Positions 1 through 17,423 are shown, numbered from the stretch's first letter. The stretch: 24,358 bases of DNA from Symploca sp. SIO1C2 (GCA_010672925.1 JAAHFP010000079.1:1-24358), one strand, 5' to 3'. Translations and numbers: made by a program. Notes: generated by a model from the sequence alone, not told the origin.

Positions 1-22
1 TTATTACTTATTACTTATTACT
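1..22. repeat. STRR heptamer array (TTATTAC)n, cut by window start
   Basis: ttattac x3 read directly. The same heptamer recurs at 19429-19462. Confidence 0.8.
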
Positions 23-103
23 TCCAAACCTGTTTATAACCCACCATTTGAGTTGTGTCACGCCAGTACATTAACTGGCGGCTATGATAAAACAAAGTAG
101 TAA

Positions 104-556
104 TTGTGCTGGTTACTGATGGAACCTCTGGAAATTGCTGTTGCTGCCTTGTTTGTAGAGTTTCTGACTAAAGCTGGGGAAAAGACTGGAGAAACCTTCG
201 GAGAAAAGCTATTTGACCAAGTAGGAACTTTACTCCAATGTCTCAGAGGTAAATCACCTCAAACAGTTGCAGCTATCGAGGAAGCAAAGGAAGCACCATT
301 GGATTTTGGTCAAGCTGTCCTAGAGGTAAAGGCCGCAGCTGAGACTGAACCAGATATTGCTGAAGCGGTGCAGCAGATAGAAGAAACCATTAAAGAAGAT
401 TCGCAACTGGCTTCTGTCATGCAAAAGGTTATCGAGGAGATGAAGTCTCAGTCTTCAAATACAAAGACTTTCATCAACCATATTGAAAAAGTTGTTAATT
501 TGCCTCAGGGAGAAAATGCTTCAGTAAAGATCGAGAATCAGAATATTAGCATTTGA
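104..556 (+). CDS. Helical N-terminal module ORF (hypothetical), in frame with the downstream NB-ARC ORF
   Basis: ORF track. TTG at 104, but the first ATG at 119-121 (MEPLEIAV...) is the more plausible start. Hydrophobic first helix (EIAVAALFVEFL), acidic amphipathic middle, N/Q/G-rich strand-turn-strand tail (TFINHIEKVVNLPQGENASVKIENQNISI). Ends at TGA 554-556. No family recognised with certainty. Confidence 0.6.
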   Translation: MCWLLMEPLEIAVAALFVEFLTKAGEKTGETFGEKLFDQVGTLLQCLRGKSPQTVAAIEEAKEAPLDFGQAVLEVKAAAETEPDIAEAVQQIEETIKEDSQLASVMQKVIEEMKSQSSNTKTFINHIEKVVNLPQGENASVKIENQNISI

Positions 557-631
557 CTGAATTCGTCCGACAGGGAACGGACAAAGTCAAATCCCCCTAC
601 TGGAATACCCCACAATCTCCCCTACAGCGGT

Positions 632-3073
632 GTGATTAAATTCGTGGGACGTGGCCAAACCCTCTCCAGCCTACACCAGAAGTTGCAGGAAAAGGAGCGA
701 GTTGCTATTTGTGCGATCGCGGGTATGGGAGGAGTAGGGAAAACCGAACTAGCACTGCAATATTCCCTGTATCATCAACAGCGGAAAACCTATGCCGGTG
801 GTATTTGTTGGTTGCAGGCAGGGGAAGTTGATATCGGCACTCAGATTGTCAACTTTGCTAGAACCCAATTAGACTTGCAGCCACCAGATGACTGGGATTT
901 AGAGAAACAGGTAAGTTACTGCTGGCGGCGTTGGCGAGAAGGGGAAGTACTGGTAGTGCTGGATGATGTTCGAGATTATCAAGATCTAGAATCTTATTTA
1001 CCTCCTGCTGAATCACGGTTTAAGCTACTGATTACCACGAGGCGGCAATGGTTAGGTGAGTCTTTTGAGCAATTGAACTTGGAAGTGCTCTCGGAAGCAG
1101 CTTCTTTGGAATTGTTGGTATCGTTTGTGGGAGAAGCGCGTATTGACAGGGAAATCAATGAGGCAAAACAGCTTTGTGGGGATTTGGGATATTTGCCCTT
1201 GGGATTGGAGTTAGTTGGGCGCTATTTGAAACGGAAACAAGATTTATCTTTGGCTAAAATGCGGCAAAGATTGGGATTGGAACATCGCTCATTACAAAAA
1301 TGCTCTCCTGATATGACGGCAAAAAGAGGAGTAGCGGCGGCTTTTGAGCTTAGTTGGCGAGAATTGGATGATTCAGCCCAAGAATTAGGATGTTTACTGA
1401 GTATCTTTGCTTTAGCACCTATTCCTTGGGGACTAGTGGAGCAATGTTTACCGGAGCAAGACGAGGAAGATTTGGAGGATGTCAGAGATGATGCTTTGTT
1501 AGATTTGAGTTTATTGGAAAGGCTGAGTGAAGGTAGTTATCAGTTACATCAGCTAATTCGAGAGTTTTTTAGCGGTAAGTTGGAACAATTGGTAGAGGCT
1601 AATCAGCTGAAGGAAAGGTTTTGTCAAGTGATGGCGGCAGAAGCAGACAAAATTCCCCATACACCAACTCAGCAAGATATTGCCCAAGCTACTCCTGTTA
1701 TTCCTCACCTGGTAGAAGCAGCAACAGTTCACAAGAATTGGTTGAAAGATGAGGATTTAATTTTGCCTTTTTTGGGTTTAGGTTGTTTTTATAAGGGGCA
1801 AGGAGTTTATCTTCCAGCAGTTAAGTGGTTTGAAGAATGTTACTTGGAGACAAAAGCACGTCTAGGGAATGAGCATCCAGATGTGTCTGCTAGCATTAAC
1901 AATCTGGCATTACTTTATAACTCACAAGGGAGGTATGAAGAGGCGGAAACTCTGTATCTGCAAGCACTTGCATTGTATAAAAAGCTCTTAGGTAATAAAC
2001 ATCCGGATGTTGCTACTAGCATCAATAATCTGGCTGGAGTTTACTATTCACAAGGAAGGTATGAAGAGGCGGAAACTCTGTATCTGCAAGCACTTTTATT
2101 GAGAAAAAAATTCTTAGGGAATGAACATCCGGATATGGTTGTTAGCATCAACAATCTGGGAGTAATCTACAAGTTACAAGGAAGGTATGACGAGGCGGAA
2201 ACTCTCCATCTCCAAGCACTTGCATTGAGTAAAAACATTTTAAGTAATGAACATCCGGATATAGCTAATAGCATCAACAACTTGGCAGTAATCTACGATT
2301 TAAAAGGAAAGTATAAAAAAGCGGAAACCCTCTATCTCCAAGCACTTGAGTTGAGAAAAAAGTTTTTAGGTAATGAACATCCGGATGTGGCTGTTAGCAT
2401 CAATAATCTGGCAATAATCTACAATTTACAAGGAAGGTATGAAGAGGCAGAAACTTTCTATCTCCAAGCACTTGCATTGTATAAAAAGCTCTTAGGTAAT
2501 AAACATCCGGATGTTGCTACTAGTATCCAAAATCTGGCTGGAGTTTACTATTCACAAGGAAGGTATGAAGAGGCGGAAACTTTCTATCTCCAAGCACTTG
2601 CATTGTATAAAAAGCTCTTAGGTAATGAACATCCGAATGTTGCTACTAGTATCCAAAATCTGGCTGGAGTTTACTATTCACAAGGAAGGTATGAAGAGGC
2701 GGAAACTCTCCATCTCCAAGCACTTACATTGTATAAAAATCTTTTAGGTAATGAACATCCAGATGTGGCTACTAGCATCAACAATCTGGCTGGAGTTTAC
2801 TATTCACAAGGAAGGTATGAAGAGGCGGAAACTCTCTTTCTCCAGGTACTGGCATTGTATAAAAAGCTCTTAGGTGATGAACATCCGAATGTTGCCACTA
2901 GCATCAACAATCTGGCTGGAGTTTACTATTCACAAGGAAGGTATGAAGAGGCGGAAACTCTCTTTCTCCAGGTACTGGCATTGTATAAAAAGCTCTTAGG
3001 TAATGAACATCCCAACACCAAAATCGCTCGTGAAAACCTTGAACAGCTTCGACAGGATGCAAACGGCAGTTGA
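632..3073 (+). CDS. NB-ARC (STAND) NTPase with C-terminal TPR array, NLR-like
   Basis: P-loop GMGGVGKTELAL, Walker B VLVVLDDV, LLITTR and GYLPLGLELVG motifs indicate NB-ARC. C-terminal half holds nine 42-aa TPR units (NEHPDVATSINNLAxxYxSQGRYEEAETLYLQAL, kinesin-light-chain/TPR_12 type) plus a cap. The GTG start at 632 is doubtful because the conserved pre-P-loop linker continues upstream (see finding). Confidence 0.93.
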   Translation: MIKFVGRGQTLSSLHQKLQEKERVAICAIAGMGGVGKTELALQYSLYHQQRKTYAGGICWLQAGEVDIGTQIVNFARTQLDLQPPDDWDLEKQVSYCWRRWREGEVLVVLDDVRDYQDLESYLPPAESRFKLLITTRRQWLGESFEQLNLEVLSEAASLELLVSFVGEARIDREINEAKQLCGDLGYLPLGLELVGRYLKRKQDLSLAKMRQRLGLEHRSLQKCSPDMTAKRGVAAAFELSWRELDDSAQELGCLLSIFALAPIPWGLVEQCLPEQDEEDLEDVRDDALLDLSLLERLSEGSYQLHQLIREFFSGKLEQLVEANQLKERFCQVMAAEADKIPHTPTQQDIAQATPVIPHLVEAATVHKNWLKDEDLILPFLGLGCFYKGQGVYLPAVKWFEECYLETKARLGNEHPDVSASINNLALLYNSQGRYEEAETLYLQALALYKKLLGNKHPDVATSINNLAGVYYSQGRYEEAETLYLQALLLRKKFLGNEHPDMVVSINNLGVIYKLQGRYDEAETLHLQALALSKNILSNEHPDIANSINNLAVIYDLKGKYKKAETLYLQALELRKKFLGNEHPDVAVSINNLAIIYNLQGRYEEAETFYLQALALYKKLLGNKHPDVATSIQNLAGVYYSQGRYEEAETFYLQALALYKKLLGNEHPNVATSIQNLAGVYYSQGRYEEAETLHLQALTLYKNLLGNEHPDVATSINNLAGVYYSQGRYEEAETLFLQVLALYKKLLGDEHPNVATSINNLAGVYYSQGRYEEAETLFLQVLALYKKLLGNEHPNTKIARENLEQLRQDANGS
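1868..3018 (+). repeat. 126-bp tandem coding repeats (TPR units) with very high nucleotide identity
   Basis: Units around 1981-2060 and 2491-2570 are nearly identical. The 64-nt string aaggtatgaagaggcggaaactctctttctccaggtactggcattgtataaaaagctcttaggt occurs twice, around 2815-2878 and 2941-3004. Confidence 0.9.
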
Positions 3074-3092
3074 GAATTTGGAATTGATGAAT

Positions 3093-3149
3093 GTGGAACT
3101 TCGCTGCTAATCTGTGTCAGCTTCTCTACTGGCAGGATGCCAGTTCCAC
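3093..3149 (+). repeat. GTGGAAC-hairpin element copy H1 (possible terminator/RNA-end element)
   Basis: Outer arms gtggaact (3093-3100) and agttccac (3142-3149). Inner perfect 7-bp stem actggca-gga-tgccagt (3128-3144). Lies 20-76 nt after the stop at 3071-3073. Confidence 0.7.
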
Positions 3150-3264
3150 GGAAGGACAGTTTATATTTATGCTTTCAAGATATTAGGAGCTGTACTTTGT
3201 CTACAGGCGCACAACTATTCCATTATTCATAATAATAGCAAAAAATCACAGCAAATACAACAAG

Positions 3265-3291
3265 AGAATTTAGAATTTAGAATTTAGAATT
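3265..3291. repeat. STRR heptamer array (AGAATTT)n
   Basis: agaattt x4 read directly. Reverse complement of the AATTCTA family at 12625-12666. Confidence 0.85.
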
Positions 3292-3313
3292 GGTAATAAA
3301 AACACGTAAACTC

Positions 3314-3378
3314 GTAGGGGCGGGTTTAGGGAGATGATAAGGGCATCAACAATAATTGGAGTACAAAACCCGCCCTAT
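3314..3378 (-). mobile_element. MITE-like ~65-bp hairpin element, copy A (GGGCGGGTTT-ended family)
   Basis: gtaggggcgggtttaggg...caaaacccgccctatc. The ends are imperfect inverted repeats (GGGCGGGTTT / AAACCCGCCC). The reverse complement matches the ends of copies B, C and D. Confidence 0.7.
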
Positions 3379-3510
3379 CGATAACCTTGCCGAAAGCACG
3401 ATTACTTACAGCACCAGTGTAAGCGCGATTGCTTGCAGCACCAGCGTAGCTGATCGCTTATCGGTTTTGAATATATCTTCGGGGTAGATTTTGCCTATGG
3501 GGAAGATACC

Positions 3511-3751: not shown

Positions 3752-5764
3752 GTGCAAGATTTACCCTCACCTGACTCTTCCAGAGTCTCGAAGCAATTAC
3801 CGGATCAGCGGTGGCAGATACCACCGGCACAAACAGATCTAGCAGACCAACTCTCCCAGGCAACTGGACTTCCTTCCCTGCTAACCCAGGTACTGATTAA
3901 CCGGGGTATCGAGACAGCAGAGGAGGCAGAAGCTTATTTGCGTCCCGAATCCCTGGTAATGCCTCCACCGATGGATGAATTTACTGACTTGGCCATTAGT
4001 GTGGAGATGCTGACGGAAGCGATCGCTGAACAAACTAAAATTGCGATCTGTGGGGACTATGATGCGGATGGTATGACTAGCACCGCTTTGTTACTGAGAG
4101 CCTTACGTTGGTTTGGTGCGGATGTAGACTATGCTATTCCTAGCCGGATGCAGGATGGTTACGGTATCAATCGGCGGATTGTCGAAGAGTTCGCTGCTGA
4201 AGGTGTAGGGCTAATTTTAACCGTAGACAATGGTATTTCTGCCCACGAAGCGATCGCTGCAGCAGTGGAATTGGGTATCACTGTGATTATTACCGATCAC
4301 CATGACTTGCCGCCAGACTTGCCAGAAGCTGATGCGATTCTCAACCCGAAAATGCTGCCGGAATCCTCCCCTTACCGGAGTATTGCTGGGGTAGGAGTAG
4401 CCTATATTTTAGCCGTTTCCCTGGGTCAAGAACTAGATAAGCTTCAAGGATTGACTGCTCAGTTATTAGAACTATTTACTTTAGGAACTATCGCTGATTT
4501 AGCCTCCTTAACCGGGATTAATCGGCGTTGGTTAAAGCGAGGCTTAAGGCAATTACCCCAGTCTCAACTCACAGGAGTTCAAGCCTTAATCCAAATGGCA
4601 GGAGTCCAGGAAGACCAAAAAGCCCTGAAACCAGAGGACATTGGCTTTAAACTAGGACCTAGAATTAATGCGATTGGTAGGATTTCTGACCCCCAGATTG
4701 TCATTGAACTGCTGACAACAACAGACCAGGGGATAGCATTAGAACGAGCGATGCAATGTGAGCAAGTCAACCAACAACGTCAGCAACTCTGTGCTCAAAT
4801 TGAAGAAGACGCGATCGCTTTTATTGAACAGAGTCAGTTACCTTGGCAACAAGAGCGAGTTTTAGTAATAGTGCAACCGGATTGGCATCACGGTGTTATT
4901 GGCATAGTTGCTTCCCGACTAGTAGAACGTTACGGAGTACCGGTATTTATTGGTACTTATGAAGGAGATGAGCAAGACCATATCAGGGGTTCAGCACGAG
5001 GTATACCAGAATTTTCCGTCTTTGAAGCTCTGCTTTCCTGTAAGGATTTACTCGGAAAATTTGGTGGACACAAAGCAGCTGGAGGATTTTCTTTACCTAC
5101 AGAGAATTTAGCAGATTTTCAAAAAGGTCTTAGCAATTTTGCCCATGAATGTTTACAACCAGAACACCTCAAACCCCTGGTAATCATCGATACTGCCATC
5201 GACTTCCAGCAAGTTAGTCTGAAATTGTACCAACAAATAGACCTACTCCACCCTTGTGGTATCGGTAATCCTGCCCCTGTCTTCTGGACACCTAATGTCC
5301 GGGTAGTTGAGCAAAGAATCGTAGGCAATGGACATTTAAAATTGACTGTTAGTCAAAGTAACCAGGCTACTAGAATCAAAGCTATTGCTTGGCGCTGGGG
5401 TGAATACTATCCTTTACCGAAAATGGTAGATATTGCTTACAAACTGCGAGAAAATACTTTCAATGGCGGCACTGGTATTGAGCTAGAAATCATTGGTATC
5501 CGCTTACCCGAATCCCCACAGCCTTCTGTAACTTCCCAGAAAACCACAGAATTTTATTACAATCAACGCCGCTACACCTGTAGCCTAATAGAATCTTTAA
5601 ATGAATTAAGAATTAAGAATCCTCAAGGAAAAGTTCTCGCCATTCAGAAAGGACAACGAACTGGTCTTTTAGGTATGAAGCGGGAAGATGCCAGGAAAGT
5701 AGATGTAACGAAACCGCCTTATTACCAGTTAATTAAAGCAGCAGCCCAAGCTTTGCAGCTGTGA
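3752..5764 (+). CDS. recJ: Single-stranded-DNA-specific exonuclease RecJ
   Basis: DHH-family motifs AICGDYDADGMTS, TVDNGIS and IITDHHD, plus the DHHA1 motif GGHKAAGG. N-terminal LLTQVLINRGI is typical of RecJ. GTG start at 3752. Confidence 0.95.
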   Translation: MQDLPSPDSSRVSKQLPDQRWQIPPAQTDLADQLSQATGLPSLLTQVLINRGIETAEEAEAYLRPESLVMPPPMDEFTDLAISVEMLTEAIAEQTKIAICGDYDADGMTSTALLLRALRWFGADVDYAIPSRMQDGYGINRRIVEEFAAEGVGLILTVDNGISAHEAIAAAVELGITVIITDHHDLPPDLPEADAILNPKMLPESSPYRSIAGVGVAYILAVSLGQELDKLQGLTAQLLELFTLGTIADLASLTGINRRWLKRGLRQLPQSQLTGVQALIQMAGVQEDQKALKPEDIGFKLGPRINAIGRISDPQIVIELLTTTDQGIALERAMQCEQVNQQRQQLCAQIEEDAIAFIEQSQLPWQQERVLVIVQPDWHHGVIGIVASRLVERYGVPVFIGTYEGDEQDHIRGSARGIPEFSVFEALLSCKDLLGKFGGHKAAGGFSLPTENLADFQKGLSNFAHECLQPEHLKPLVIIDTAIDFQQVSLKLYQQIDLLHPCGIGNPAPVFWTPNVRVVEQRIVGNGHLKLTVSQSNQATRIKAIAWRWGEYYPLPKMVDIAYKLRENTFNGGTGIELEIIGIRLPESPQPSVTSQKTTEFYYNQRRYTCSLIESLNELRIKNPQGKVLAIQKGQRTGLLGMKREDARKVDVTKPPYYQLIKAAAQALQL

Positions 5765-5767
5765 AAT

Positions 5768-5836
5768 TAGGTGGTAGGTGTTAAGTGGTAGGTGGTAGGT
5801 GGTAGGTGGTAGGTGGTAGGTGGTAGGTGGTAGGTA
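5768..5836 (+). repeat. STRR heptamer array (GGTGGTA/GGTGTTA)n
   Basis: Starts 4 nt after the recJ stop. The same family occurs at 7873-7913, 17424-17449, 17837-17869 (inverted) and 21801-21922. Confidence 0.9.
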
Positions 5837-5946
5837 TAAGTAAGTTGGGTTTCATTACTACCGGCGTGACACGCCTAAAATAGTGAAATAGACGTAGGTT
5901 GGGTCGAGGCACTACTGTGGTACACCTAAAATGATGTAATATATGT

Positions 5947-6127
5947 CCTCCCCATCTCCCCATCTCCCCATCTCCCCATCTCCCCATCTCCTCAGCTCCC
6001 TCAGCTCCCTCAGCTCCTCCGCTCCCCATCTCCTCAGCTCCCCATCTCCTCAGCTCCCCATCTCCCTCAGCTCCCCATCTCCCTCAGCTCCCTCAGCTCC
6101 CTCAGCTCCTCCGCTCCCCCATCCCCC
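5947..6127 (+). repeat. C-rich 8/9-mer tandem array (CTCCCCAT / CTCCCTCAG); the G4 runs lie on the minus strand
   Basis: CCCC runs at 5950, 5958, 5966, 5974 and 5982 with a strict 8-nt period, then mixed 8/9-mers to 6127. The ORFs called here (5781..6029, 5943..6134) are repeat artefacts. Confidence 0.9.
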
Positions 6128-6242
6128 TCAATAGGACTAAAGTCCCAAATAAAGTCAGGGCTTTCGCCTCATGTTGTTTCGATATTGCCGTTTGTAGGAT
6201 TGAAGCATAGAAAACAAAATCACAGCAACTACAAACACTTCC

Positions 6243-7007
6243 ATGAAACTCAAATTCTTTCCCTTACTAGCTGGTGTCGCCGCAATTACTCTGATTACAG
6301 CTCCTCTAGTCGTTAATGCTCAACGCTCTAATCTATTAGCTCAAAGACCACACCAAGTTCTCTCCAACTTAGACCTTACCTCTGAACAACAAACCCAGTT
6401 AGATCAAATCCGGAACAATGCTGACTCACAGATAGCAGCTATCTTGAATCCTGGACAACAGCAGCAGTTTCAATCCATCCAAGCACAGCGTGAACAGCTG
6501 CACGAGGCAATGAAAGCGATGAATCTTACCTCTGAACAAAAAGAGCAAATGCGCTCCATCAAACAGTCAGCAAAACAACAGATGGCGGGCATACTCACAG
6601 ACGCACAACGCCAACAGCTTCGACAGGAACGCCAGAATGCTGGTGGTGGAGGGAAAGGACCTCGTGGACTAGGGGGTCCGGAAGCTCTCCTTAGCTTGAA
6701 CCTCTCCTCTGAACAACAAGCGCAGCTAGAGCAAATTCGCGACAGTAGTGACTCACAAATAGCAGCTATCTTGAATCCTGGACAACAGCAACAGTTCCAA
6801 TCCATCCAGGCACAGCGTGAGCAACTCAAAGAAGCAATGAAGGCTATGAACCTCACTCCTGAGCAGAAGGAACAAATGCGCTCTATCCGGCAGTCATCCC
6901 GCCAGCAGGTAAGTGGCATCCTCACAGAAGAGCAACAGCAACAACTGCGCCAAGAAATGCGCTCTCGTCGTGGTGGCGAAGGCAGAAGAGGGCCAAGAGC
7001 TCAATAA
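6243..7007 (+). CDS. Secreted LTXXQ-motif protein (Spy/CpxP/ZraP-like periplasmic chaperone family), internally duplicated
   Basis: Signal peptide MKLKFFPLLAGVAAITLITAPLVVNAQ. Four L(T/S)xEQ motifs (LDLTSEQQ, MNLTSEQK, LNLSSEQQ, MNLTPEQK). Two ~100-aa halves joined by a Gly-rich linker NAGGGGKGPRGLGG. Confidence 0.7.
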   Translation: MKLKFFPLLAGVAAITLITAPLVVNAQRSNLLAQRPHQVLSNLDLTSEQQTQLDQIRNNADSQIAAILNPGQQQQFQSIQAQREQLHEAMKAMNLTSEQKEQMRSIKQSAKQQMAGILTDAQRQQLRQERQNAGGGGKGPRGLGGPEALLSLNLSSEQQAQLEQIRDSSDSQIAAILNPGQQQQFQSIQAQREQLKEAMKAMNLTPEQKEQMRSIRQSSRQQVSGILTEEQQQQLRQEMRSRRGGEGRRGPRAQ

Positions 7008-7042
7008 TTGCTAAAACCTTTGGATAGACCAGTAAGTGGAAA

Positions 7043-7080
7043 GTTGAGGTTTGAGGTAGGTCAACCCTCAACCTTTTCCT
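7043..7080 (+). terminator. Possible intrinsic terminator after the LTXXQ gene
   Basis: gttgagg (7043-7049) pairs with cctcaac (7066-7072), followed by cttttcctt. The loop is long, so this is tentative. Confidence 0.4.
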
Positions 7081-7199
7081 TATGCCTAATTGTTACTCAA
7101 GTTACCTTTTGAGACTGAAACTTAATTACCATAGATAGATATTAAAATAACACTTTAGGTATAAACTCCCTAAAGGTTAACTGCTTCAGGAGGGTACTG

Positions 7200-7874
7200 A
7201 TGACGATAAGTCTACTCACTAGGGTAACATGTTCCGTCTGTTCTTCGATAAGTGAACAACCAGTAATAACGAGAACAAATATATTAGGCGGCTCTACAGG
7301 TCTAGATACCAGACCACCAGAGATGGTACACTCATCTATCCATTACCCCATTCAAGTATGTCCCAATTGTGGCTACTGTTGCCATAACCTTGCCGAGGAG
7401 TATTCTCAGGCAGCGGAAATTGTTACCAGTAAAACCTATCAAACTCAACTGAAAAATCCTGATTATCCAGAGTTAGCCAACTGGTTTCTCTGCTATGCCA
7501 TGATCCAGAAACAAGCAGGAGAAATTGCCCAGGCTGGATGGGCAAGTTTACAGGCGGCTTGGGTTTGCGATGATGCCAGCAACGATAAAGCTGCACAAAA
7601 GATTCGTCAGCAAGCAGCAGCATTATTTCAAAAAGCGATCGCTAGAGGGGAGAATATTGACAGAGAACCCATCACTAAAGAGGTTATCTTAATTGACATC
7701 TACAGAAGGTGCGGTGATTTTAATGCCGCAGGTAAGATCTGTGCCAATGCTCTGCGGCAAAAGTCAACAGGTATCCAGGTTAAGCTAGTAGAGTACGAAC
7801 ATCAACTGCTACGCAAACAAGATAAGGGTTGTCATACACTTGAAGAAGCGATTAAGGTTATTTCAGTTTGTTAG
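7200..7874 (+). CDS. Zinc-ribbon protein with helical C-terminal half (DUF2225-like, tentative)
   Basis: CSVC...(45 aa)...CPNCGYCC pattern followed by a helical TPR-like region. AGGAGG lies 7 nt upstream of ATG 7200. The stop TAG (7872-7874) lies inside the first STRR unit. Confidence 0.55.
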   Translation: MTISLLTRVTCSVCSSISEQPVITRTNILGGSTGLDTRPPEMVHSSIHYPIQVCPNCGYCCHNLAEEYSQAAEIVTSKTYQTQLKNPDYPELANWFLCYAMIQKQAGEIAQAGWASLQAAWVCDDASNDKAAQKIRQQAAALFQKAIARGENIDREPITKEVILIDIYRRCGDFNAAGKICANALRQKSTGIQVKLVEYEHQLLRKQDKGCHTLEEAIKVISVC

Positions 7875-7956
7875 GTGGTAGGTGGTAGGTAGTAGGTAGT
7901 AGGTTTTAGGTGTTCGGATTCTAAAATCTAAAATCTAAAATCTAAAATCTAAAATC
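7873..7956. repeat. Two adjoining STRR arrays: (GGTRGTA)n 7873-7913 and (TCTAAAA)n 7920-7956
   Basis: Read directly. They fill the whole spacer between the convergent genes. Confidence 0.9.
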
Positions 7957-7963
7957 TCCATTC

Positions 7964-9298
7964 TTAATTCCCAAAAGCATTATCCCATACATAATCAATA
8001 ACTTGCTTAGACTGTTCGAGGGGGAGAAGCCGACAGCGGTTCTGCTCATCCAATGATAAGAGGGGTTGATCTTCAACTAAGTGATCAGCTTGCGTGAAAT
8101 CTCCTCGGATGTTAGCAAGGTTATTCAATGGACCTTGGATATCGAAGTCGATTTTAGTACCAAATTTTTCATCCATCCATTCTTCAACCTGATCGTCAAG
8201 TTCTTCAGGTGTGAGGGGGCGATCGCTGGTAAGTAAATGGTAATATACCAGCAGAATTTCCTTAGTTTCTTCCTCTTCAGCAAAATCGATCAGGGTGCTG
8301 AGGGCACTAGTGTTGCTGGCAATATTACGAAAGAAGAGTGTATCGGTTACATCTTTCTGAAATTTAATTTTTTTGTTCTGATACTTAGCATATTGCTGGA
8401 AGCTAAAGCCGCCCAAAGTTATCAGTAGAGAGAGGACTGCTAAAAGCAGGGGAGCAAGGTCTTTAACAGTGTCTGCGTCTGCTCTGAGAGCTGCAATATC
8501 CACAGGACGGCCAAGGGTCAGGAAGCCAATAACGCCAATGATTAAGAGCATTTGAGGTGCAACCTTTAACAACAGAGGAATGGCTGCACCAATTGCAGGA
8601 ACACCAAGCAACAGGCGATCCTTCCAAGTCATACTAGTTTTGATGTTGGGAAAGAGGAATTCGAGATCCGGTTTGGGAACATTTTGATAGTAGTAGACGT
8701 AAGCTTTGCCGGGGATAAACTTAAGTTTGCTGACATCAACGTTTTTTTCTTCAAAGTAAGTAGCGTCTTTAAATCGCAAGAAAACAAAAATCTGTTTAAG
8801 GATGTCTAATTCGATTTCTTTGTGCCAAAACCAACGTTTAGTTTTAATGGTTTGAGTTATATCGCCACGATAATAGAAAATAATTTGTTCAAACTCATTA
8901 AAATCAATATCTGTTTTGAGGTCAATGAGAGACTTTACTTTAAAAGCGCGTTGCAGAAACTCCTGGGTGAGGGGAATGTAATTGGCACGTTCTAGAACTT
9001 CGGTGACAGCTACAATAAGTTCTGCCTCCATCTGTTGCACTTCTTCCGGGTTAGGGTGATGGACAACTTTGGTAACAGAATCGGGGTTGAAGGGCTCAAA
9101 ATTGTATTTAATCGTTTCTAAGTAACTGTGAAACTGGAAGTGATAGTAAGCTGAAAGAATATTGCAAAATTCGCGGAAGGTCGCTTGTTGGTCAATGGAA
9201 AGACGACCATCGGAAATACATAGATCGATAAGATCACTGCGACGGTAGGGGATATAGGCTTCGCGATCATCGTATACTGCCATTGATTTCATGGGCAA
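7964..9298 (-). CDS. Conserved membrane protein (DUF3754/TMEM143-like, tentative)
   Basis: Soluble N-terminal ~225 aa; 2-3 TM helices (LLLGVPAIGAAIPLLL, MLLIIGVIGFLTLG, LAPLLLAVLSLLITLGGF); acidic C-terminal domain (AEEEETKEILLVYYHLL...IDFDIQGPLNNL). The track start is TTG 9298. ATG at 9292-9290 (MKSMAVY) is more likely. Confidence 0.6.
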   Translation of the reverse strand: MPMKSMAVYDDREAYIPYRRSDLIDLCISDGRLSIDQQATFREFCNILSAYYHFQFHSYLETIKYNFEPFNPDSVTKVVHHPNPEEVQQMEAELIVAVTEVLERANYIPLTQEFLQRAFKVKSLIDLKTDIDFNEFEQIIFYYRGDITQTIKTKRWFWHKEIELDILKQIFVFLRFKDATYFEEKNVDVSKLKFIPGKAYVYYYQNVPKPDLEFLFPNIKTSMTWKDRLLLGVPAIGAAIPLLLKVAPQMLLIIGVIGFLTLGRPVDIAALRADADTVKDLAPLLLAVLSLLITLGGFSFQQYAKYQNKKIKFQKDVTDTLFFRNIASNTSALSTLIDFAEEEETKEILLVYYHLLTSDRPLTPEELDDQVEEWMDEKFGTKIDFDIQGPLNNLANIRGDFTQADHLVEDQPLLSLDEQNRCRLLPLEQSKQVIDYVWDNAFGN

Positions 9299-14392: not shown

Positions 14393-14418
14393 AATGGGTA
14401 TCTCAGCAATTACCCATT
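14393..14418 (-). terminator. Possible terminator hairpin abutting the caspase-STAND stop codon
   Basis: aatgggta (14393-14400) pairs with tacccatt (14411-14418): perfect 8-bp stem with a 10-nt loop. On the minus strand it is followed by TTGCATTC, so the U-tract is weak. Confidence 0.35.
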
Positions 14419-17400
14419 CATCGTCTGAAAACTTCCCACTGACCACAATCTATCCGTTGGTAGGGTTCTTTTTTTAGTTCCTCTTCAAAATCTGGGTCAA
14501 ATTTCGCTTCCTGCCAATAGCAGATAGATTTGACCTGCTTGGGAGTGAGGTTTTCGACTTTGCCCCAATTTGGGTCTTCACCGAAGTAGGCTCCGCTGAG
14601 GTCAGCTCTATTGATGTCAGCTCCTCTGAGGTCAGCTCCTCTGAGGTCAGCTCCTCTGAGGTCAGCATCAAAGAGGTTGGCATCAATAAGGCTAGCCTCC
14701 AAGAGGCCGACTCTACTGAGGTTGGCATCAAAGAGGATGGCTCTACTGAGGTTGGCTCTGCTGAGGTCGGTTCCACTGAGTTTGGCTCTCCTGAGGTTGG
14801 CTCTGCTGAGGTTGGCTCCACTGAGTTTGGCTCCACTGAGTTTGGCTCTCCTGAGGTCGGCTCCACTGAGGTTGGCATCAATGAGGTCGGCTCCACTGAG
14901 GTTGGCATCAATGAGGTCGGCTCCACTGAGGTCGGCTCCACTGAGGTTAGCTCCACTGAGGTTGGCTCTGCTGAGGTCGGCTCCACTGAGGTTGGCTCTG
15001 CTGAGGTCGGCTCCACTGAGGTTGGCTCTGCTGAGGTTGATCCTACTCAAGTTAGCTTGTTGAAGAGGAGCATTCCTTAAAGCAACTCCTAACTCTTTGA
15101 GCTTTCGCAGCGCTTCGTGCCTAGCCGCATTGTACTCTTCACCTTGAGTTTCCTGAACTGTTTCCCAGTGCTGCTTAATCGCTACTCTCCTATAAGACAA
15201 GTACCCAATCAGTGTTGTTCCAATTACAGGAATGATCAACCAACCAACAATTAATTTCAGTCGATTACGCTGCTTGTGCTCGATACTTTTTTCGATAAAC
15301 TCTGAGGCAAATTTCGATAAAGGAAATTCTTCACTCTCCTTTTTCTTAAACTCTCTAGCTTCCCTTAACCGCCTTCCTTGCAGCAAATAATCCTTAGCAA
15401 TTTTAGGATTTTCCTGCTGCTTATTCCTCCACTCAATAGCAGCAGCTTCAATCTTACGCTGCTCCCTGAGCTTATCCCGACTTTCCTCTAACCACTGCCT
15501 CAACAGACACCAGTTACGGATCAGTGCTTCATGAGCAACATCCACTACTACTTCCCCACTTGCCATCCCCTTTGCTGTTAGCTCACTAGTAACAATTAAC
15601 CGATTCTCCTTATCCGCTAATTCCGCAATTACCTCATCAATTAGAGCTTCAGGATATTTAGCTGTAATCAAATCTTGCTTTAATACCCGCCTACGAGTAT
15701 CCTCTGTCCCCTCTCCCAGCTGCGTCAAACCCAGAAATATATGCCTAGCTACCTCCTGCTTTAACTGAGAAAATTGTTGGAAAATCTCCGTGGCTCTTTT
15801 ATCTAACGTTCCCCCTACACCTCCTAACTGAGCATAACTAGCTAACTGTAAACCCTCATCAGTGCGCTGTTTCCAAAGTGCCTTGAGGGTATATTGCAAC
15901 AGTGGCAAACTTCCAGGAGAACCTGCGACATCTTGAAGCATCTGCTCCACTAATTCTGGCTCAATCTCCAAGTTAACTAGTTCAGCAGGTTTAGCGATCG
16001 CATCTTGCAACTGTTCCCTTTCCATCGGAGATATTGCGACTAAGTTCTCCTGGATCAGTTGAGCTAGTCCACTATAATTCTGCTCGATACATTTACTAAA
16101 GAAATCTGCTCGCATTGCCAGAATCAGACAAAGTTCCTCTTCCAACTGCCTTAATGCTCCCAGCAAAAAGTCAATAAACTGCGATCGCTCTCCATAATTC
16201 TGACAAAGGGTGAAAACTTCCTCAAATTGGTCGATTACCAGCACCACACGAGTAACTTGAGCAGATTGTACTAGACGGCGTAACCCATCTGCACCTTCTT
16301 TGAGTAATTCTTCTGCTTTCCCTAACTGTGTAGCGTGGTCAACTTGGGATAAATTTGGCTCCACAAAAACCTCTGCTAAACTCCTCAGAGGCTGACTTCC
16401 AGGAACCATAATCTCAATCTGCCACTGATTACTCCCAGCTAATTGCCTTCCTAACTTCAGTTGATGGAGTAATCCGGCCCTCAGGACTGAAGATTTACCA
16501 CTGCCAGAAGCTCCGATAATTGCCAAGAAGCTACTCTGACGCACTTTATCAATCAGCTGATCCGTTAGTTCCTTGCGTCCGAAAAAGTATTTGGGGTCTT
16601 CTTCATTACAGTCAAAATATTCTAATCCCTTGTAAGGACAAATGGCTTCAGTTGGTTCAGAAGTCGCCTGCTGTTGTTGAAATTTCCAGCTACGAGTTAA
16701 ATTAATCGGCTCACCAAAGTTAGTAAAAGTCGGACGTTGAGTTACCCCTTGCAGATGTTGGTTGAGATAATCCACCAAACTATAGTTAGTAACCCAGCGT
16801 TGAGGACATCTACTAGGGTCAAGTCCTTCTAGTAGCACCCTAGTCAAAACACTGTAGGCACTACCAATTTCTTCAAAAGACTCCTCAAATTCCCTAGAAG
16901 CAGCGATAAAACAACGGTCTCTTCCTTTACCTTGTTCTCCAGGGTCAGCTTCTTGCCCAAAATTGAGTAATTCTCCACTATGGCAGCAGTCAAGCCAGAC
17001 TATTTGCTGCTTAATCGGACTCTCTCTTAATAGTTCTCGCAACCATTTCAAGGATAAGCCATTAAATTCTACATCGGGATTAACATCACTAGTTGCCAAA
17101 AATCCTTCTGGAATACCCAAAGTTGTACGCAATCCATGGCCAGAAAAGTAGAATAAGGCAGTATCGGGGATACTGTTACCTTCGGGTAAAAATAGTTTAA
17201 CCAGTGCTTGCTTGAGTTGTGACAGCTTAACTTCCAGCTTCTTCCCTACAAAAGGCTGATGAGTTTCTCGATGAATTGCTTCCGGCAACCGCCAGACACG
17301 AAACTCTCCATCCTGTTCTAACCGTTGTGCAATCGCTTCTGCATCTTCAGCGGGAGCTTGTAGGTTACGTAAGTCTGAATATTGGTAAGTATTGATGCCA

Positions 17401-17423
17401 ACAACTAGCGCATCCCGGATCAT
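14418..17423 (-). CDS. Caspase-like (peptidase C14, orthocaspase) - nSTAND-type P-loop NTPase - single TM helix - pentapeptide-repeat protein
   Basis: Caspase His/Cys dyad motifs FYFSGHG (aa ~93-98) and VWLDCCHSG (aa ~142-150). CPYKGLEYFDCNEEDPKYFFGRKEL then P-loop IIGASGSGKSSVLRAGL and Walker B VVLVIDQFEEVFT. HEALIRNWCLLRQWLEE helix. TM LIVGWLIIPVIGTTLIGYLSY (nt 15192-15260). About 32 pentapeptide units A(N/D)LSx (aa ~786-946). C-terminal NLTPKQVKSICYWQEAKFD tail. Confidence 0.93.
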   Translation of the reverse strand: MIRDALVVGINTYQYSDLRNLQAPAEDAEAIAQRLEQDGEFRVWRLPEAIHRETHQPFVGKKLEVKLSQLKQALVKLFLPEGNSIPDTALFYFSGHGLRTTLGIPEGFLATSDVNPDVEFNGLSLKWLRELLRESPIKQQIVWLDCCHSGELLNFGQEADPGEQGKGRDRCFIAASREFEESFEEIGSAYSVLTRVLLEGLDPSRCPQRWVTNYSLVDYLNQHLQGVTQRPTFTNFGEPINLTRSWKFQQQQATSEPTEAICPYKGLEYFDCNEEDPKYFFGRKELTDQLIDKVRQSSFLAIIGASGSGKSSVLRAGLLHQLKLGRQLAGSNQWQIEIMVPGSQPLRSLAEVFVEPNLSQVDHATQLGKAEELLKEGADGLRRLVQSAQVTRVVLVIDQFEEVFTLCQNYGERSQFIDFLLGALRQLEEELCLILAMRADFFSKCIEQNYSGLAQLIQENLVAISPMEREQLQDAIAKPAELVNLEIEPELVEQMLQDVAGSPGSLPLLQYTLKALWKQRTDEGLQLASYAQLGGVGGTLDKRATEIFQQFSQLKQEVARHIFLGLTQLGEGTEDTRRRVLKQDLITAKYPEALIDEVIAELADKENRLIVTSELTAKGMASGEVVVDVAHEALIRNWCLLRQWLEESRDKLREQRKIEAAAIEWRNKQQENPKIAKDYLLQGRRLREAREFKKKESEEFPLSKFASEFIEKSIEHKQRNRLKLIVGWLIIPVIGTTLIGYLSYRRVAIKQHWETVQETQGEEYNAARHEALRKLKELGVALRNAPLQQANLSRINLSRANLSGADLSRANLSGADLSRANLSGANLSGADLSGADLIDANLSGADLIDANLSGADLRRAKLSGAKLSGANLSRANLRRAKLSGTDLSRANLSRAILFDANLSRVGLLEASLIDANLFDADLRGADLRGADLRGADINRADLSGAYFGEDPNWGKVENLTPKQVKSICYWQEAKFDPDFEEELKKEPYQRIDCGQWEVFRR
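14586..15068 (-). repeat. 15-bp periodic coding repeat (pentapeptide-repeat region)
   Basis: Units such as gaggtcggctccact and gaggttggctctgct are reiterated with few differences. They generate the spurious ORFs 14474..15016 and 14611..15063. Confidence 0.9.

Follow-up and report, generated by a model that had tools for sequence, protein, structure and literature searches.

Do the two adjacent open reading frames of a Symploca locus encode two proteins, or are they one translational unit that is read in two ways? The window, the 24,358-nucleotide stretch of Symploca sp. SIO1C2 that was analysed (GCA_010672925.1 JAAHFP010000079.1:1-24358), carries a small ORF followed by an NLR-like ORF (Table 1). 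A sequence-only reading had placed ORF 104-556 and ORF 632-3073 in one frame with a single TGA between them, and had offered three explanations: a recent nonsense mutation in an all-in-one NLR, a sequence or assembly error, and programmed UGA readthrough.

The small ORF and the downstream ORF in one frame

The map of frame 2 bears out the shared frame, because the stops of the 104-3073 region lie at 98, 101, 554 (TGA) and 3071, with no others. The base after the stop is C, as claimed, and codons 557-631 (LNSSDRERTKSNPPTGIPHNLPYSG) contain no ATG, GTG or TTG; the first such codon is GTG 632. This stretch encodes the hairpin described below (codons 3-9) and the IPHNLPYSG linker into NB-ARC. The upstream ORF lies in the shared frame as described, but its TTG start at 104 is less likely than ATG 119, because every homologue opens with MEPLE. 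A scan for terminators and promoter-like sites was negative for the stretch between the two ORFs. For the window by itself, the chance of a same-frame arrangement with 25 stop-free codons is about 0.075. Taken alone, the arrangement is not beyond chance; only when other loci are compared does it become significant.

Table 1. Coordinates of the observed and predicted features in the window.
Feature	Position	Strand	Evidence or remark
Small ORF, 145 aa, proposed termination product	119-553	+	homologues, alignment, AF2 model
C-terminal tail TFINHIEKVVNLPQGENASVKIENQNISI	467-553	+	N/Q/G-rich; candidate BASS-like amyloid signalling motif
UGA and following C, proposed recoding site	554-557	+	comparison of loci
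Conserved cassette, nucleotide level	554-598	+	TGA CTR NAG TCG YCC GAM NGG GAA CGG RYA AAG TYA AAT CCC
Linker of 25 sense codons, free of stops and starts	557-631	+	would be translated only upon readthrough
RNA hairpin, 5 bp, 8-nt spacer after UGA	565-582	+	pairing, covariation, RNAalifold
Hairpin 5´ arm GUCCG	565-569	+	
Hairpin loop ACAGGGAA, 8 nt	570-577	+	
Hairpin 3´ arm CGGAC	578-582	+	
Candidate pseudoknot partner CCC	593-595	+	could pair with loop GGG 573-575
NB-ARC-TPR (NLR-like STAND) ORF as a gene caller would take it	632-3073	+	
NB-ARC	about 656-1306	+	PF00931, 3e-19
P-loop GMGGVGKT	722-745	+	
TPR array	1863-3012	+	ten TPR_12 units, 5e-172 (Pfam)
Predicted readthrough product	119-3073	+	145 + 1 + 838 = 984 aa; single in-frame stop

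The small ORF begins with a hydrophobic helix (MEPLEIAVAALFV) that is followed by a helical bundle. It belongs to a family of free-standing proteins of ~130-175 aa from filamentous cyanobacteria, which is chromosomal and in one case plasmid-borne. All 66 database homologues fall within 107-176 aa, and none of the 66 is a fusion. The TKAxEKTGE and GxAVLEV motifs are invariant in the family alignment. The AF2 model (pLDDT 70, pTM 0.65) contains helices from residues 3-16 through 115-127, and residues 129-145 have a pLDDT below 50. Variation within the family is concentrated in the tail, which forms at least 8-10 classes.

A resemblance to Bell/HeLo-type effectors with short amyloid motifs had been proposed, and it holds in part. 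Bell proteins are described as short (~120-140 aa) predicted helical bundles whose N-terminal helix is hydrophobic and whose position 2-3 is acidic; the 145-aa protein fits this description, and paralogous loci with TAA or TAG stops carry textbook pairs of effector-tail and NLR-N-terminus motifs. Homology to the Bell domain and similarity to a HeLo, MLKL or CC fold, in contrast, did not emerge from the searches of the small ORF: Pfam and NCBIfam returned sub-threshold noise only, Foldseek of the AF2 model against the PDB returned no match with E < 1 (best E = 1.1; Rx-CC, E = 2.7), and a PDB profile search returned nothing relevant. The putative Bell role of the small ORF and the putative amyloid role of its tail rest on analogy. 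All that the PDB profile search yielded was a curious recurring match of 18 residues to WD40 repeats of Nostoc and to designed helical repeats.

The downstream ORF combines a P-loop NB-ARC domain with a repeat array that follows it, the order of an NB-ARC STAND protein with a TPR sensor. NCBIfam assigns it to FxSxx_TPR (5e-117), TRF detects a period of 126 bp with 9.1 copies in the TPR-coding region, and no copy of the tail motif is present in the window's NLR ORF. Coding constraint had been suspected upstream of GTG 632; indeed, homology of the NB-ARC protein to its relatives begins at the first residues after the TGA. The codon-position entropy ratio is 0.92 (RNA-like) at first, then 1.32 (coding-like), and 1.70 in NB-ARC.

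Stop codon, context and start signals across homologous loci

Past the small ORF, 49 of the 81 homologous loci stay open in frame over 75 codons or more, and the stop is TGA in 48 of these 49, whereas the 32 non-continuing loci end in TAA (23), TAG (5) or TGA (4) (Fisher p = 2e-16); these and the following locus counts exceed the number of independent events, because the loci share ancestry and recombination may spread the cassette. The 48 TGA loci span many genera, and their downstream ORF is in frame 0 with no gap in 48/48; Nostoc linckia NIES-25 and Calothrix PCC 7103 are among the genomes that carry the cassette. At the two-gene loci, the NB-ARC ORF lies in any frame (5, 9 and 7 loci for the frames), has a start codon of its own and repeats the effector tail motif at its N-terminus. 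All distinct junctions carry UGA. The +4 base is C in 75 of 85 of them, compared with 4 of 32 other loci, and the next codon is CTG or CTA in 67/85. Among about 90 loci, a single sense variant occurs at the stop position (TGG = Trp, in L022). By this comparison of sequences, the UGA stop is under maintenance.

These data also dispose of the first two explanations. In the window alone, a lone stop in an open frame of 984 codons (chance ~0.08) resembles a fresh nonsense mutation, as a decaying all-in-one NLR or an error at 554-556 would leave it. The same codon, in the same place and with the same flanks, recurs in 48 genome and 41 metagenome loci, from independent assemblies and many genera. 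Other lesions are absent, the small ORF is a conserved free-standing family, the downstream region is under coding-type constraint, and the hairpin carries compensatory substitutions. A pseudogene or an error is already refuted by the comparative data and is scarcely conceivable.

The start signals of the downstream module bear on a further explanation, in which two independent genes are present, the NLR is translated by internal initiation (from GTG 632 or non-canonical codons) or by termination-reinitiation, and the hairpin is an element of mRNA processing, stability or coupling. In the window, GTG 632 stands just before FVGR, at the edge of the NB-ARC core, and would permit independent initiation, so the window's own copy says little about a missing start. 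Gene callers split such loci into two, and Bell and NLR ORFs mostly lie side by side or overlap and probably share a polycistronic mRNA (Dyrka et al., 2020). Neither reinitiation nor internal initiation, however, requires the shared frame and gapless, stop-free linker of the 48 TGA loci. GTG follows directly after the stop at only 5 of 85 junctions, and at many loci no ATG, GTG or TTG occurs in frame until the FVGR motif or the P-loop region has been reached or passed: the first is codon 52 in L006, 69 in L024 (P-loop at 51), 102 in L031, 108 in L021 and 114 in L051. No SD-like sequence was seen for the downstream modules at the loci examined, and one annotation began the NLR at ATT. An NLR made in this way would also lack the tail motif, unlike every two-gene paralogue. 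Two independent genes are therefore unlikely.

The copy number of the tail motif separates the two classes of loci. Two-gene paralogues have one copy at the effector C-terminus and another at the NLR N-terminus, whereas UGA loci have a single copy directly before the NLR part, which is homologous from KLTPTKSIPYRGSVNFVGR on. The L116 locus is intermediate: its effector stop is TAA, its NLR possesses an ATG together with a motif copy of its own, and the hairpin sequence forms sense codons, with AAC at the UGA position. Two other loci were set aside. L060 was rejected as a true effector-NLR fusion, being a deletion derivative without a P-loop, and L069 is an unrelated long-tailed variant.

A covarying hairpin within a modular cassette

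Nucleotide-level conservation spans position 1 to about position 45 of the cassette, where third codon positions are conserved like the first and second. The TCG codon position is kept whether the residue is S, P or T, and its CG is invariant in 46 distinct genome-locus junctions. The window contains one copy of the cassette, against a chance expectation of none, and model R1 matches junctions only. Rfam contains no matching family for the window at the gathering threshold, nor for 450-750 at E values up to 10.

The hairpin 8 nt after the stop was not noticed in the sequence-only reading. Across the junctions, 97.7% of the hairpin cells are paired, and slid controls reach at most 62%. Pair 13:28 is U-A at 45 junctions, C-G at 34 and U-G at 4, and pair 16:25 changes from G-C to C-G or U-G. 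Compensatory changes are thus found at two of the five pairs, the observed covariation score was matched by none of 500 shuffles, and RNAalifold yields the identical hairpin. Its free energy is -7.4 kcal/mol, and in a 44-nt context it is not significantly stabler than shuffled sequences. The thermodynamic z-scores in context are unremarkable; the support for the hairpin is covariation and not energy. Readthrough stimulators known so far are usually larger than a 5-bp hairpin of this energy. A candidate pseudoknot would join the loop GGG to the downstream CCC; its positions are paired in 77-84 of 85 junctions with nearly no covariation. A candidate lower stem of positions 1-5 and 32-36, which would take in the UGA, likewise fits the consensus, again without covariation.

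A metagenome scan with the hairpin pattern only returned 47 matches, and 41 of them have a TGA exactly 10 nt upstream. These 41 loci are preceded by an ORF in the 135-180-codon range, which the family HMM matches in 32; the other nine comprise seven that are cut or too short for the comparison, one of only 60 codons, and one that is divergent and full-length. In 36 of the 41, the frame stays open over 75 or more codons or as far as the contig reaches. Five of the 47 matches were discarded as chance hits in unrelated sequence.

The cassette is modular and joins at least 8-10 tail classes to varied downstream modules, including NB-ARC-TPR, NACHT-HEAT, CHAT-TPR, CHASE2, FGE-sulfatase and PsbP-like modules. 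Such promiscuity, together with the tandem double systems at L081, L088 and L122, is what would be expected if the conserved 45 nt served chiefly as a recombination junction in the DNA for reshuffling effectors and sensors, with the in-frame UGA as a by-product. This explanation leaves the base-pair covariation, UGA as the only stop, the +4 C, the fixed frame and the missing downstream starts unaccounted for, and it is improbable. Recombination that spreads the cassette may well occur and is compatible with readthrough.

A UGA that closely precedes a conserved stem-loop with G residues in the loop is also the layout of a bacterial SECIS (PMC7026636), and selenocysteine insertion would likewise give a terminated and an extended product, the latter carrying Sec. 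The locus differs from a SECIS in that no homologue has Cys at the position, which is taken up instead by TGG in L022, AAC in L116 or a genuine stop, and in that the site is a linker behind an amyloid-like tail and not a redox centre. The apical loop begins 13 nt after the UGA, which is shorter than the 16-37 nt spacing of the bSECISearch model. Rfam gave no match, and the Sec-decoding trait has been reported as not detected in Cyanobacteria. Insertion of selenocysteine is accordingly very improbable here.

Proposed readthrough and comparison with known systems

Programmed UGA readthrough, the third of the original explanations, is supported by the constant UGA, the +4 C, the strict frame, the starts missing at many loci, the covarying hairpin, the absence of a second motif copy and the contrast with the two-gene paralogues. 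With a probability of roughly three in four, window 119-3073 is one translational unit with a programmed readthrough site. Most ribosomes would terminate at the UGA and release the 145-aa, Bell-like helical protein with its N/Q/G-rich tail. In a minority of ribosomes a near-cognate tRNA, with tRNA-Trp the most plausible candidate, would decode the UGA, aided by the weak UGA-C context, the conserved spacer and a hairpin that lies at the mRNA entrance while the A site holds the UGA. Among stop codons UGA is the leakiest, and a +4 C increases readthrough (PMC5289835). Ribosomes that read through would go on for 838 codons to give a fusion in the order effector, tail, linker, NB-ARC and TPR. The single tail motif would thereby be set directly N-terminal to NB-ARC, which is the position of the second, NLR-encoded copy in the related two-gene systems.

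From this arrangement we infer a mode of action. Once the TPR sensor is triggered, the rare fusion would oligomerise and its tail motifs would nucleate an amyloid fold, which would recruit and activate the abundant free effector and lead, possibly by membrane attack, to abortive cell death or defence. With readthrough, the ratio of sensor to effector would be fixed and the templating motifs would necessarily be identical, a simple route to keeping nucleator and substrate the same. It is also conceivable, if rather doubtful, that the level of readthrough is itself an input, and that the fusion is driven past a nucleation threshold by translation stress or when a phage alters RF2 or tRNA.

Programmed stop-codon readthrough in bacterial cellular genes is nearly absent from the literature, and none with a dedicated RNA structure has been described; a NAR 2019 review names only B. 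subtilis SacB, which sets a low prior for a structured signal here. A literature search on readthrough in Bell/BASS/NLR systems or cyanobacteria found nothing relevant, with incomplete coverage that makes an earlier description possible. The locus quite probably represents the first structured programmed-readthrough signal in bacterial cellular genes: a portable cassette of ~45 nt (UGA-C, 8-nt spacer and hairpin) with which filamentous cyanobacteria obtain two proteins per ORF, a free amyloid-tailed executioner and the same protein fused to an NLR or another sensor, with a single tail motif as both nucleator and substrate and the sensor-to-effector ratio set by decoding. If so, a 45-nt cassette with about 90 loci and base-pair covariation offers a tractable model of recoding, and the cassette would be a new class of cis-regulatory RNA, because it is absent from Rfam. 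Such loci are now annotated as two genes with wrong or non-canonical NLR starts, and readthrough would account for many 'orphan' Bell-tail genes whose adjoining NLR is apparently devoid of a motif or even of a start codon.

The closest known systems are the Bell-BASS/NLR amyloid-signalling gene pairs of filamentous bacteria (Dyrka et al., 2020, bioRxiv 10.1101/2020.01.06.895854). Both have a helical protein of ~130-145 aa whose N-terminal helix is hydrophobic and whose second residue is acidic, an N/Q/G-rich C-terminal tail of ~25 aa, and a collinear, adjacent NB-ARC-TPR gene, and both occur in Nostoc, Calothrix, Tolypothrix and other taxa. In the window and in about 90 other loci, however, the NLR ORF lacks a motif copy, often lacks a start, and is joined in frame to the effector via the UGA and the hairpin. 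The published screen would miss these loci because it demanded the motif in the annotated NLR N-terminus, and two papers on such pairs mention neither stop codons nor readthrough.

Viral readthrough provides the mechanistic parallel. Examples are MuLV gag-pol (UAG, 8-nt spacer and pseudoknot), alphavirus nsP3/nsP4 (UGA-C) and the phage Qbeta coat/A1 protein, in which UGA readthrough works on bacterial ribosomes (PMC7026636). The Symploca locus has in common with them a leaky UGA with +4 C, a structure about 8 nt downstream, conserved synonymous sites, and the predicted output of an abundant short and a rare C-terminally extended product from one ORF. It differs in being a cellular bacterial gene family with a much smaller hairpin and an unrelated motif that is absent from Rfam. 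The likeness to a bacterial SECIS is limited to the in-frame UGA, the short fixed distance to a conserved stem-loop and the loop G residues; Cys homologues and a redox context are lacking, and the loop lies closer to the UGA. Finally, the predicted product has the effector domain, NOD and repeats in the order of all-in-one effector-NLRs (fungal HeLo/HELL-NLRs and, according to Dyrka et al., rare bacterial Bell-NLRs), but its fusion would be conditional on recoding, the tail motif is kept between effector and NOD, and the free effector would coexist with the fusion. The locus would thus link two NLR architectures, two-gene amyloid signalling and the all-in-one receptor.

Reading frame and the small-ORF family

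Stops in frame 2 of the ORF region of the window occur solely at 98, 101, 554 and 3071, and ORF 104-556 and ORF 632-3073 therefore lie in a common frame with TGA 554-556 as the sole separator. The base after this TGA is C, and the 25 codons between it and the downstream ORF (LNSSDRERTKSNPPTGIPHNLPYSG) contain no ATG, GTG or TTG, which confirms what had been read from the sequence alone. A candidate GTG start is present at 632 in the window copy, and a scan for terminators and promoters found no such site between the two ORFs. The likeliest start of the upstream (small) ORF is ATG 119, giving 145 aa, because all relatives begin with MEPLE. For the window alone, the chance of a common frame with 25 stop-free codons is ~0.075, and on its own the window proves nothing about the arrangement.

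The downstream protein comprises NB-ARC and ten TPR_12 units and matches the NCBIfam family FxSxx_TPR. Some adjoining units of its TPR array are nearly identical; repeats this alike internally are a usual trait of NLR sensor domains under rapid diversification. The locus is flanked by two short heptamer repeats that resemble cyanobacterial short tandemly repeated repetitive sequences. Elsewhere in the window, a 1001-aa all-in-one STAND protein with a caspase domain (Peptidase_C14), nSTAND1 (3e-122) and pentapeptide repeats is unrelated to the NB-ARC-TPR gene, and the window therefore holds two NLR-like death or defence genes. A 693-aa protein with an N-terminal AAA_16/AAA_22 ATPase and a C-terminus without a recognised domain may represent a third STAND-like gene.

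A database search returned 66 homologues of the small ORF, every one of 107-176 aa, none fused to an NTPase and all from filamentous cyanobacteria (Symploca, Moorena, Caldora, Brasilonema, Nostoc, Tolypothrix and Calothrix). In the family alignment, conservation covers the N-terminal ~110 residues, where TKAxEKTGE and GxAVLEV are invariant; the C-terminal 25-40 residues belong to several N/Q/G-rich tail classes unrelated to one another. The AF2 model (pLDDT 70, pTM 0.65) is a helical bundle with the hydrophobic helix first and a disordered tail. The likeness to Bell/HeLo effectors with an amyloid motif, proposed in the sequence-only reading, holds for this architecture; Pfam, NCBIfam, PDB sequences and Foldseek with the AF2 model gave no match, and Bell-fold and amyloid roles are suggested by architectural analogy. 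Positions 30-47 of the family profile (window ~206-259) gave a summed E = 2e-19 with 2ymu, a Nostoc WD40 repeat protein. The score adds up the matches of one 18-residue segment (LWDKTGxFLxTLKxHS-like) to every WD40 blade; no stretch is significant by itself, and the sum probably reflects compositional or repeat inflation.

Features of the window and of homologous loci (L-numbers)
Feature	Position	Strand	Remark
Hairpin in window	GUCCG 565-569 with CGGAC 578-582	+	8-nt loop; pairing of junction alignment
TPR array, tandem repeat	window 1863-3012		126 bp, 9.1 copies, 86% DNA-level identity
Heptamer repeat	window 1-23		TTATTAC-like
Heptamer repeat	window 3265-3291		AGAATTT x3.9
Caspase-nSTAND1 gene	window 14418-17423	-	1001 aa
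AAA_16/AAA_22 gene	window 19734-21815	+	693 aa
L006, first in-frame start	codon 52		P-loop codon 51
L024, first in-frame start	codon 69		P-loop codon 51
L031, first in-frame start	codon 102		P-loop none found
L021, first in-frame start	codon 108		P-loop none found
L051, first in-frame start	codon 114		P-loop none found
L007, first in-frame start	codon 78		P-loop codon 80
L126 (= L006), junction	4436-4484		Brasilonema
L022, sense variant	~5433-5531		Dolichospermum MAG
L060, continuous ORF	4932-8159
L116, TAA-ATG locus	2861-3420
L081, two units	4004, 9648
L088, two units	6330, 10408
L122, two units	5186, 8113

Two classes of loci and a conserved junction

Eighty genomic loci encoding relatives of the small ORF were analysed together with the window. 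In 49 of these 81 (class I), no further stop interrupts the frame until at least 75 codons past that of the small ORF, typically 400-1200, and the frame enters NB-ARC or another module with no gap; the stop is TGA in 48 of these 49. The other 32 loci do not continue and end in TAA (23), TAG (5) or TGA (4). Class II is the subset of these in which the small ORF is followed, at a distance of 4-620 nt, by an NB-ARC ORF; the frame of the latter is 0, 1 or 2 in 5, 9 and 7 loci, respectively. The difference in stop identity between class I and the non-continuing loci (Fisher p = 2e-16) and the in-frame count of 48/48 (binomial p = 1e-23) both ignore kinship, and the counted loci are not independent samples. 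Class I loci occur in Symploca, Caldora, Brasilonema, Rhizonema, Nostoc, Stigonema, Calothrix, Anabaena, Scytonema, Iningainema, Tolypothrix, Aulosira and Oscillatoria, in Xenococcaceae and Microcystaceae MAGs and on one Nostocales plasmid; culturable carriers of the cassette include Calothrix PCC 7103 (L023) and Nostoc linckia NIES-25 (L009).

The comparison of orthologous loci, which had been named as a check, thus placed TGA at the junction of nearly all continuing loci, with conservation of the nucleotides that follow it. A nonsense pseudogene or a sequencing error, the other options considered earlier, is excluded by this conservation across loci. Only one sense variant was seen, and the comparison indicates that the UGA stop is maintained. 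This variant, L022, carries UGG (Trp) in place of UGA and keeps the hairpin; it may be a decaying copy because a TAA falls inside its NB-ARC region. In L060, effector and tail are fused straight to mid-NB-ARC with the P-loop deleted, and this locus seems to have arisen from a two-gene locus by deletion and degeneration.

The junctions align gap-free with the consensus TGA CTR NAG TCG YCC GAM NGG GAA CGG RYA AAG TTA AAT CCC, and several features point to conservation at the nucleotide rather than the amino-acid level. The third codon past the TGA encodes S (TCG), P (CCG) or T (ACG) and always ends in CG among 46 distinct genome-locus junctions, and the third codon positions 21, 27, 30 and 33 are 91-98% conserved. 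The entropy ratio of third to first and second positions is 0.92 in codons 1-11, 1.32 in codons 12-23 and 1.70 inside NB-ARC (45 distinct sequences).

Positions 12-16 pair with 25-29 to form a hairpin that starts 8 nt past the UGA; a hairpin at this distance would sit at the ribosomal mRNA entrance when the UGA occupies the A site. The paired share of cells is 97.7% among 44 distinct genome junctions and at most 62% in slid-register controls, and RNAalifold, run independently, predicts the same hairpin. Pair 13:28 alternates between U-A and C-G (45 U-A, 34 C-G and 4 U-G among 85 distinct junctions) and pair 16:25 changes from G-C to C-G or U-G; the observed covariation score was reached by 0 of 500 shuffles. 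The coupled changes of S to P in one codon and T to V/A in a second are explained by this base pairing. The hairpin is a small one, and its energy of -7.4 kcal/mol does not stand out in context. The consensus also accommodates a loop-GGG:CCC pseudoknot and a lower stem including the UGA, with no covariation among the junctions for either, and no Rfam family matches the element.

Metagenome contigs scanned for the hairpin pattern, with neither TGA nor ORF required, gave 47 matches. In 41, a TGA lies exactly 10 nt upstream of the match after a 135-180-codon ORF; five are chance matches and the remaining one is L116. The family HMM matched 32 of the 41 upstream ORFs, which add more tail classes. 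Of the nine unmatched ORFs, seven are truncated or of insufficient length for the test, another has a length of just 60 codons, and the last, L107, is divergent and full-length with similar architecture. In 36 of the 41 loci the frame continues, mostly into NB-ARC, for 75 codons or more or until the contig ends; the five with early stops are decayed copies or assembly errors. R1, a covariance model of the junction, found 68 sites in 820 kb, all of them junctions and none in class II loci. The window contains one copy of the element, where none is expected by chance.

Initiation, tail motif and modularity

After the TGA, the first in-frame ATG, GTG or TTG is often found only beyond the conserved FVGR motif or the P-loop, and no SD-like sequence was found at junctions where downstream starts were examined. 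Judged from these sequences, separate production of the downstream module would be impossible in many loci. In Brasilonema, the public annotation opens the NLR at ATT, 16 codons past the UGA, because no canonical start precedes the P-loop, and such loci are probably systematically mis-annotated.

Class II loci fit the canonical effector/NLR motif pairs defined by Dyrka et al., as in an effector ending ...MPNLEKLADKIGQVVMPGGTGNIENMSF beside an NLR starting MPEDSGKFADKIGVFAAPGAQVNIGTQII...QKQLTPTKSIPYRGSVNFVGRETEL. The NLR parts of class I are homologous from KLTPTKSIPYRGSVNFVGR onward and have no motif of their own; the sole motif is the effector tail directly upstream of the UGA, and readthrough would therefore restore the motif-linker-NB-ARC order of class II. 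Independent genes or reinitiation would leave the strict frame, the absent starts and the absent NLR motif unexplained. The ENWQGINIKGG... tail class occurs in three states, in class I (L088 at 6330), in class II (L061) and in L116. In the last, the effector stop is TAA, an ATG 4 nt later begins an NLR that itself carries a copy of the tail motif, AAC stands in place of the TGA and the hairpin sequence consists of sense codons (ISSERERVKSNPP), making L116 an apparent evolutionary intermediate.

The cassette (UGA-C, spacer and hairpin) joins the effector to NB-ARC-TPR, NB-ARC/APAF1_C, NACHT-HEAT-NCC-H, NACHT, CHAT-TPR, CHASE2, TM-FGE-sulfatase or TM-PsbP-like modules and, on this comparison, appears modular. 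It may mark a DNA recombination junction, which could account for its spread, but neither the covariation nor the UGA is accounted for in this way. The non-STAND partners are CHASE2 (L027), TM and PsbP-like (L038/L051/L062), TM and FGE-sulfatase (L044/L045) and CHAT-TPR (L021), to which a model of NLR oligomerisation does not obviously apply. L081, L088 and L122 each hold two cassette-bearing effector-sensor units 3-6 kb apart on one contig, which suggests tandem arrays of such systems; the tail class differs between the units of one contig.

Predicted readthrough and known systems

Programmed UGA readthrough, one of the options of the sequence-only reading, is favoured by the strict frame, the UGA, the covarying hairpin and the absent starts, and the fusion is a predicted product with comparative support. 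Termination at UGA-C would release the free 145-aa effector, and occasional near-cognate decoding, aided by context and hairpin, would yield a 984-aa effector-tail-NB-ARC-TPR fusion; selenocysteine insertion at the UGA is unlikely. By analogy with BASS, the rare fusion would oligomerise when triggered by ligand and nucleate the tail's amyloid fold, which would recruit free effector whose hydrophobic N-terminal helix would attack the membrane.

UGA is the leakiest stop, and readthrough is raised by a +4 C (PMC5289835). UGA readthrough functions on bacterial ribosomes in Qbeta, and the only bacterial cellular case in a 2019 NAR review is B. subtilis SacB (PMC7026636). Dyrka et al. 2020 and the 2024 antiphage amyloid preprint are both silent on stop codons and readthrough, and a further literature search, incomplete in coverage, found no prior account of readthrough at such loci. 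The proposed arrangement would join two known kinds of system, BASS-type NLR signalling and structured stop-codon readthrough.
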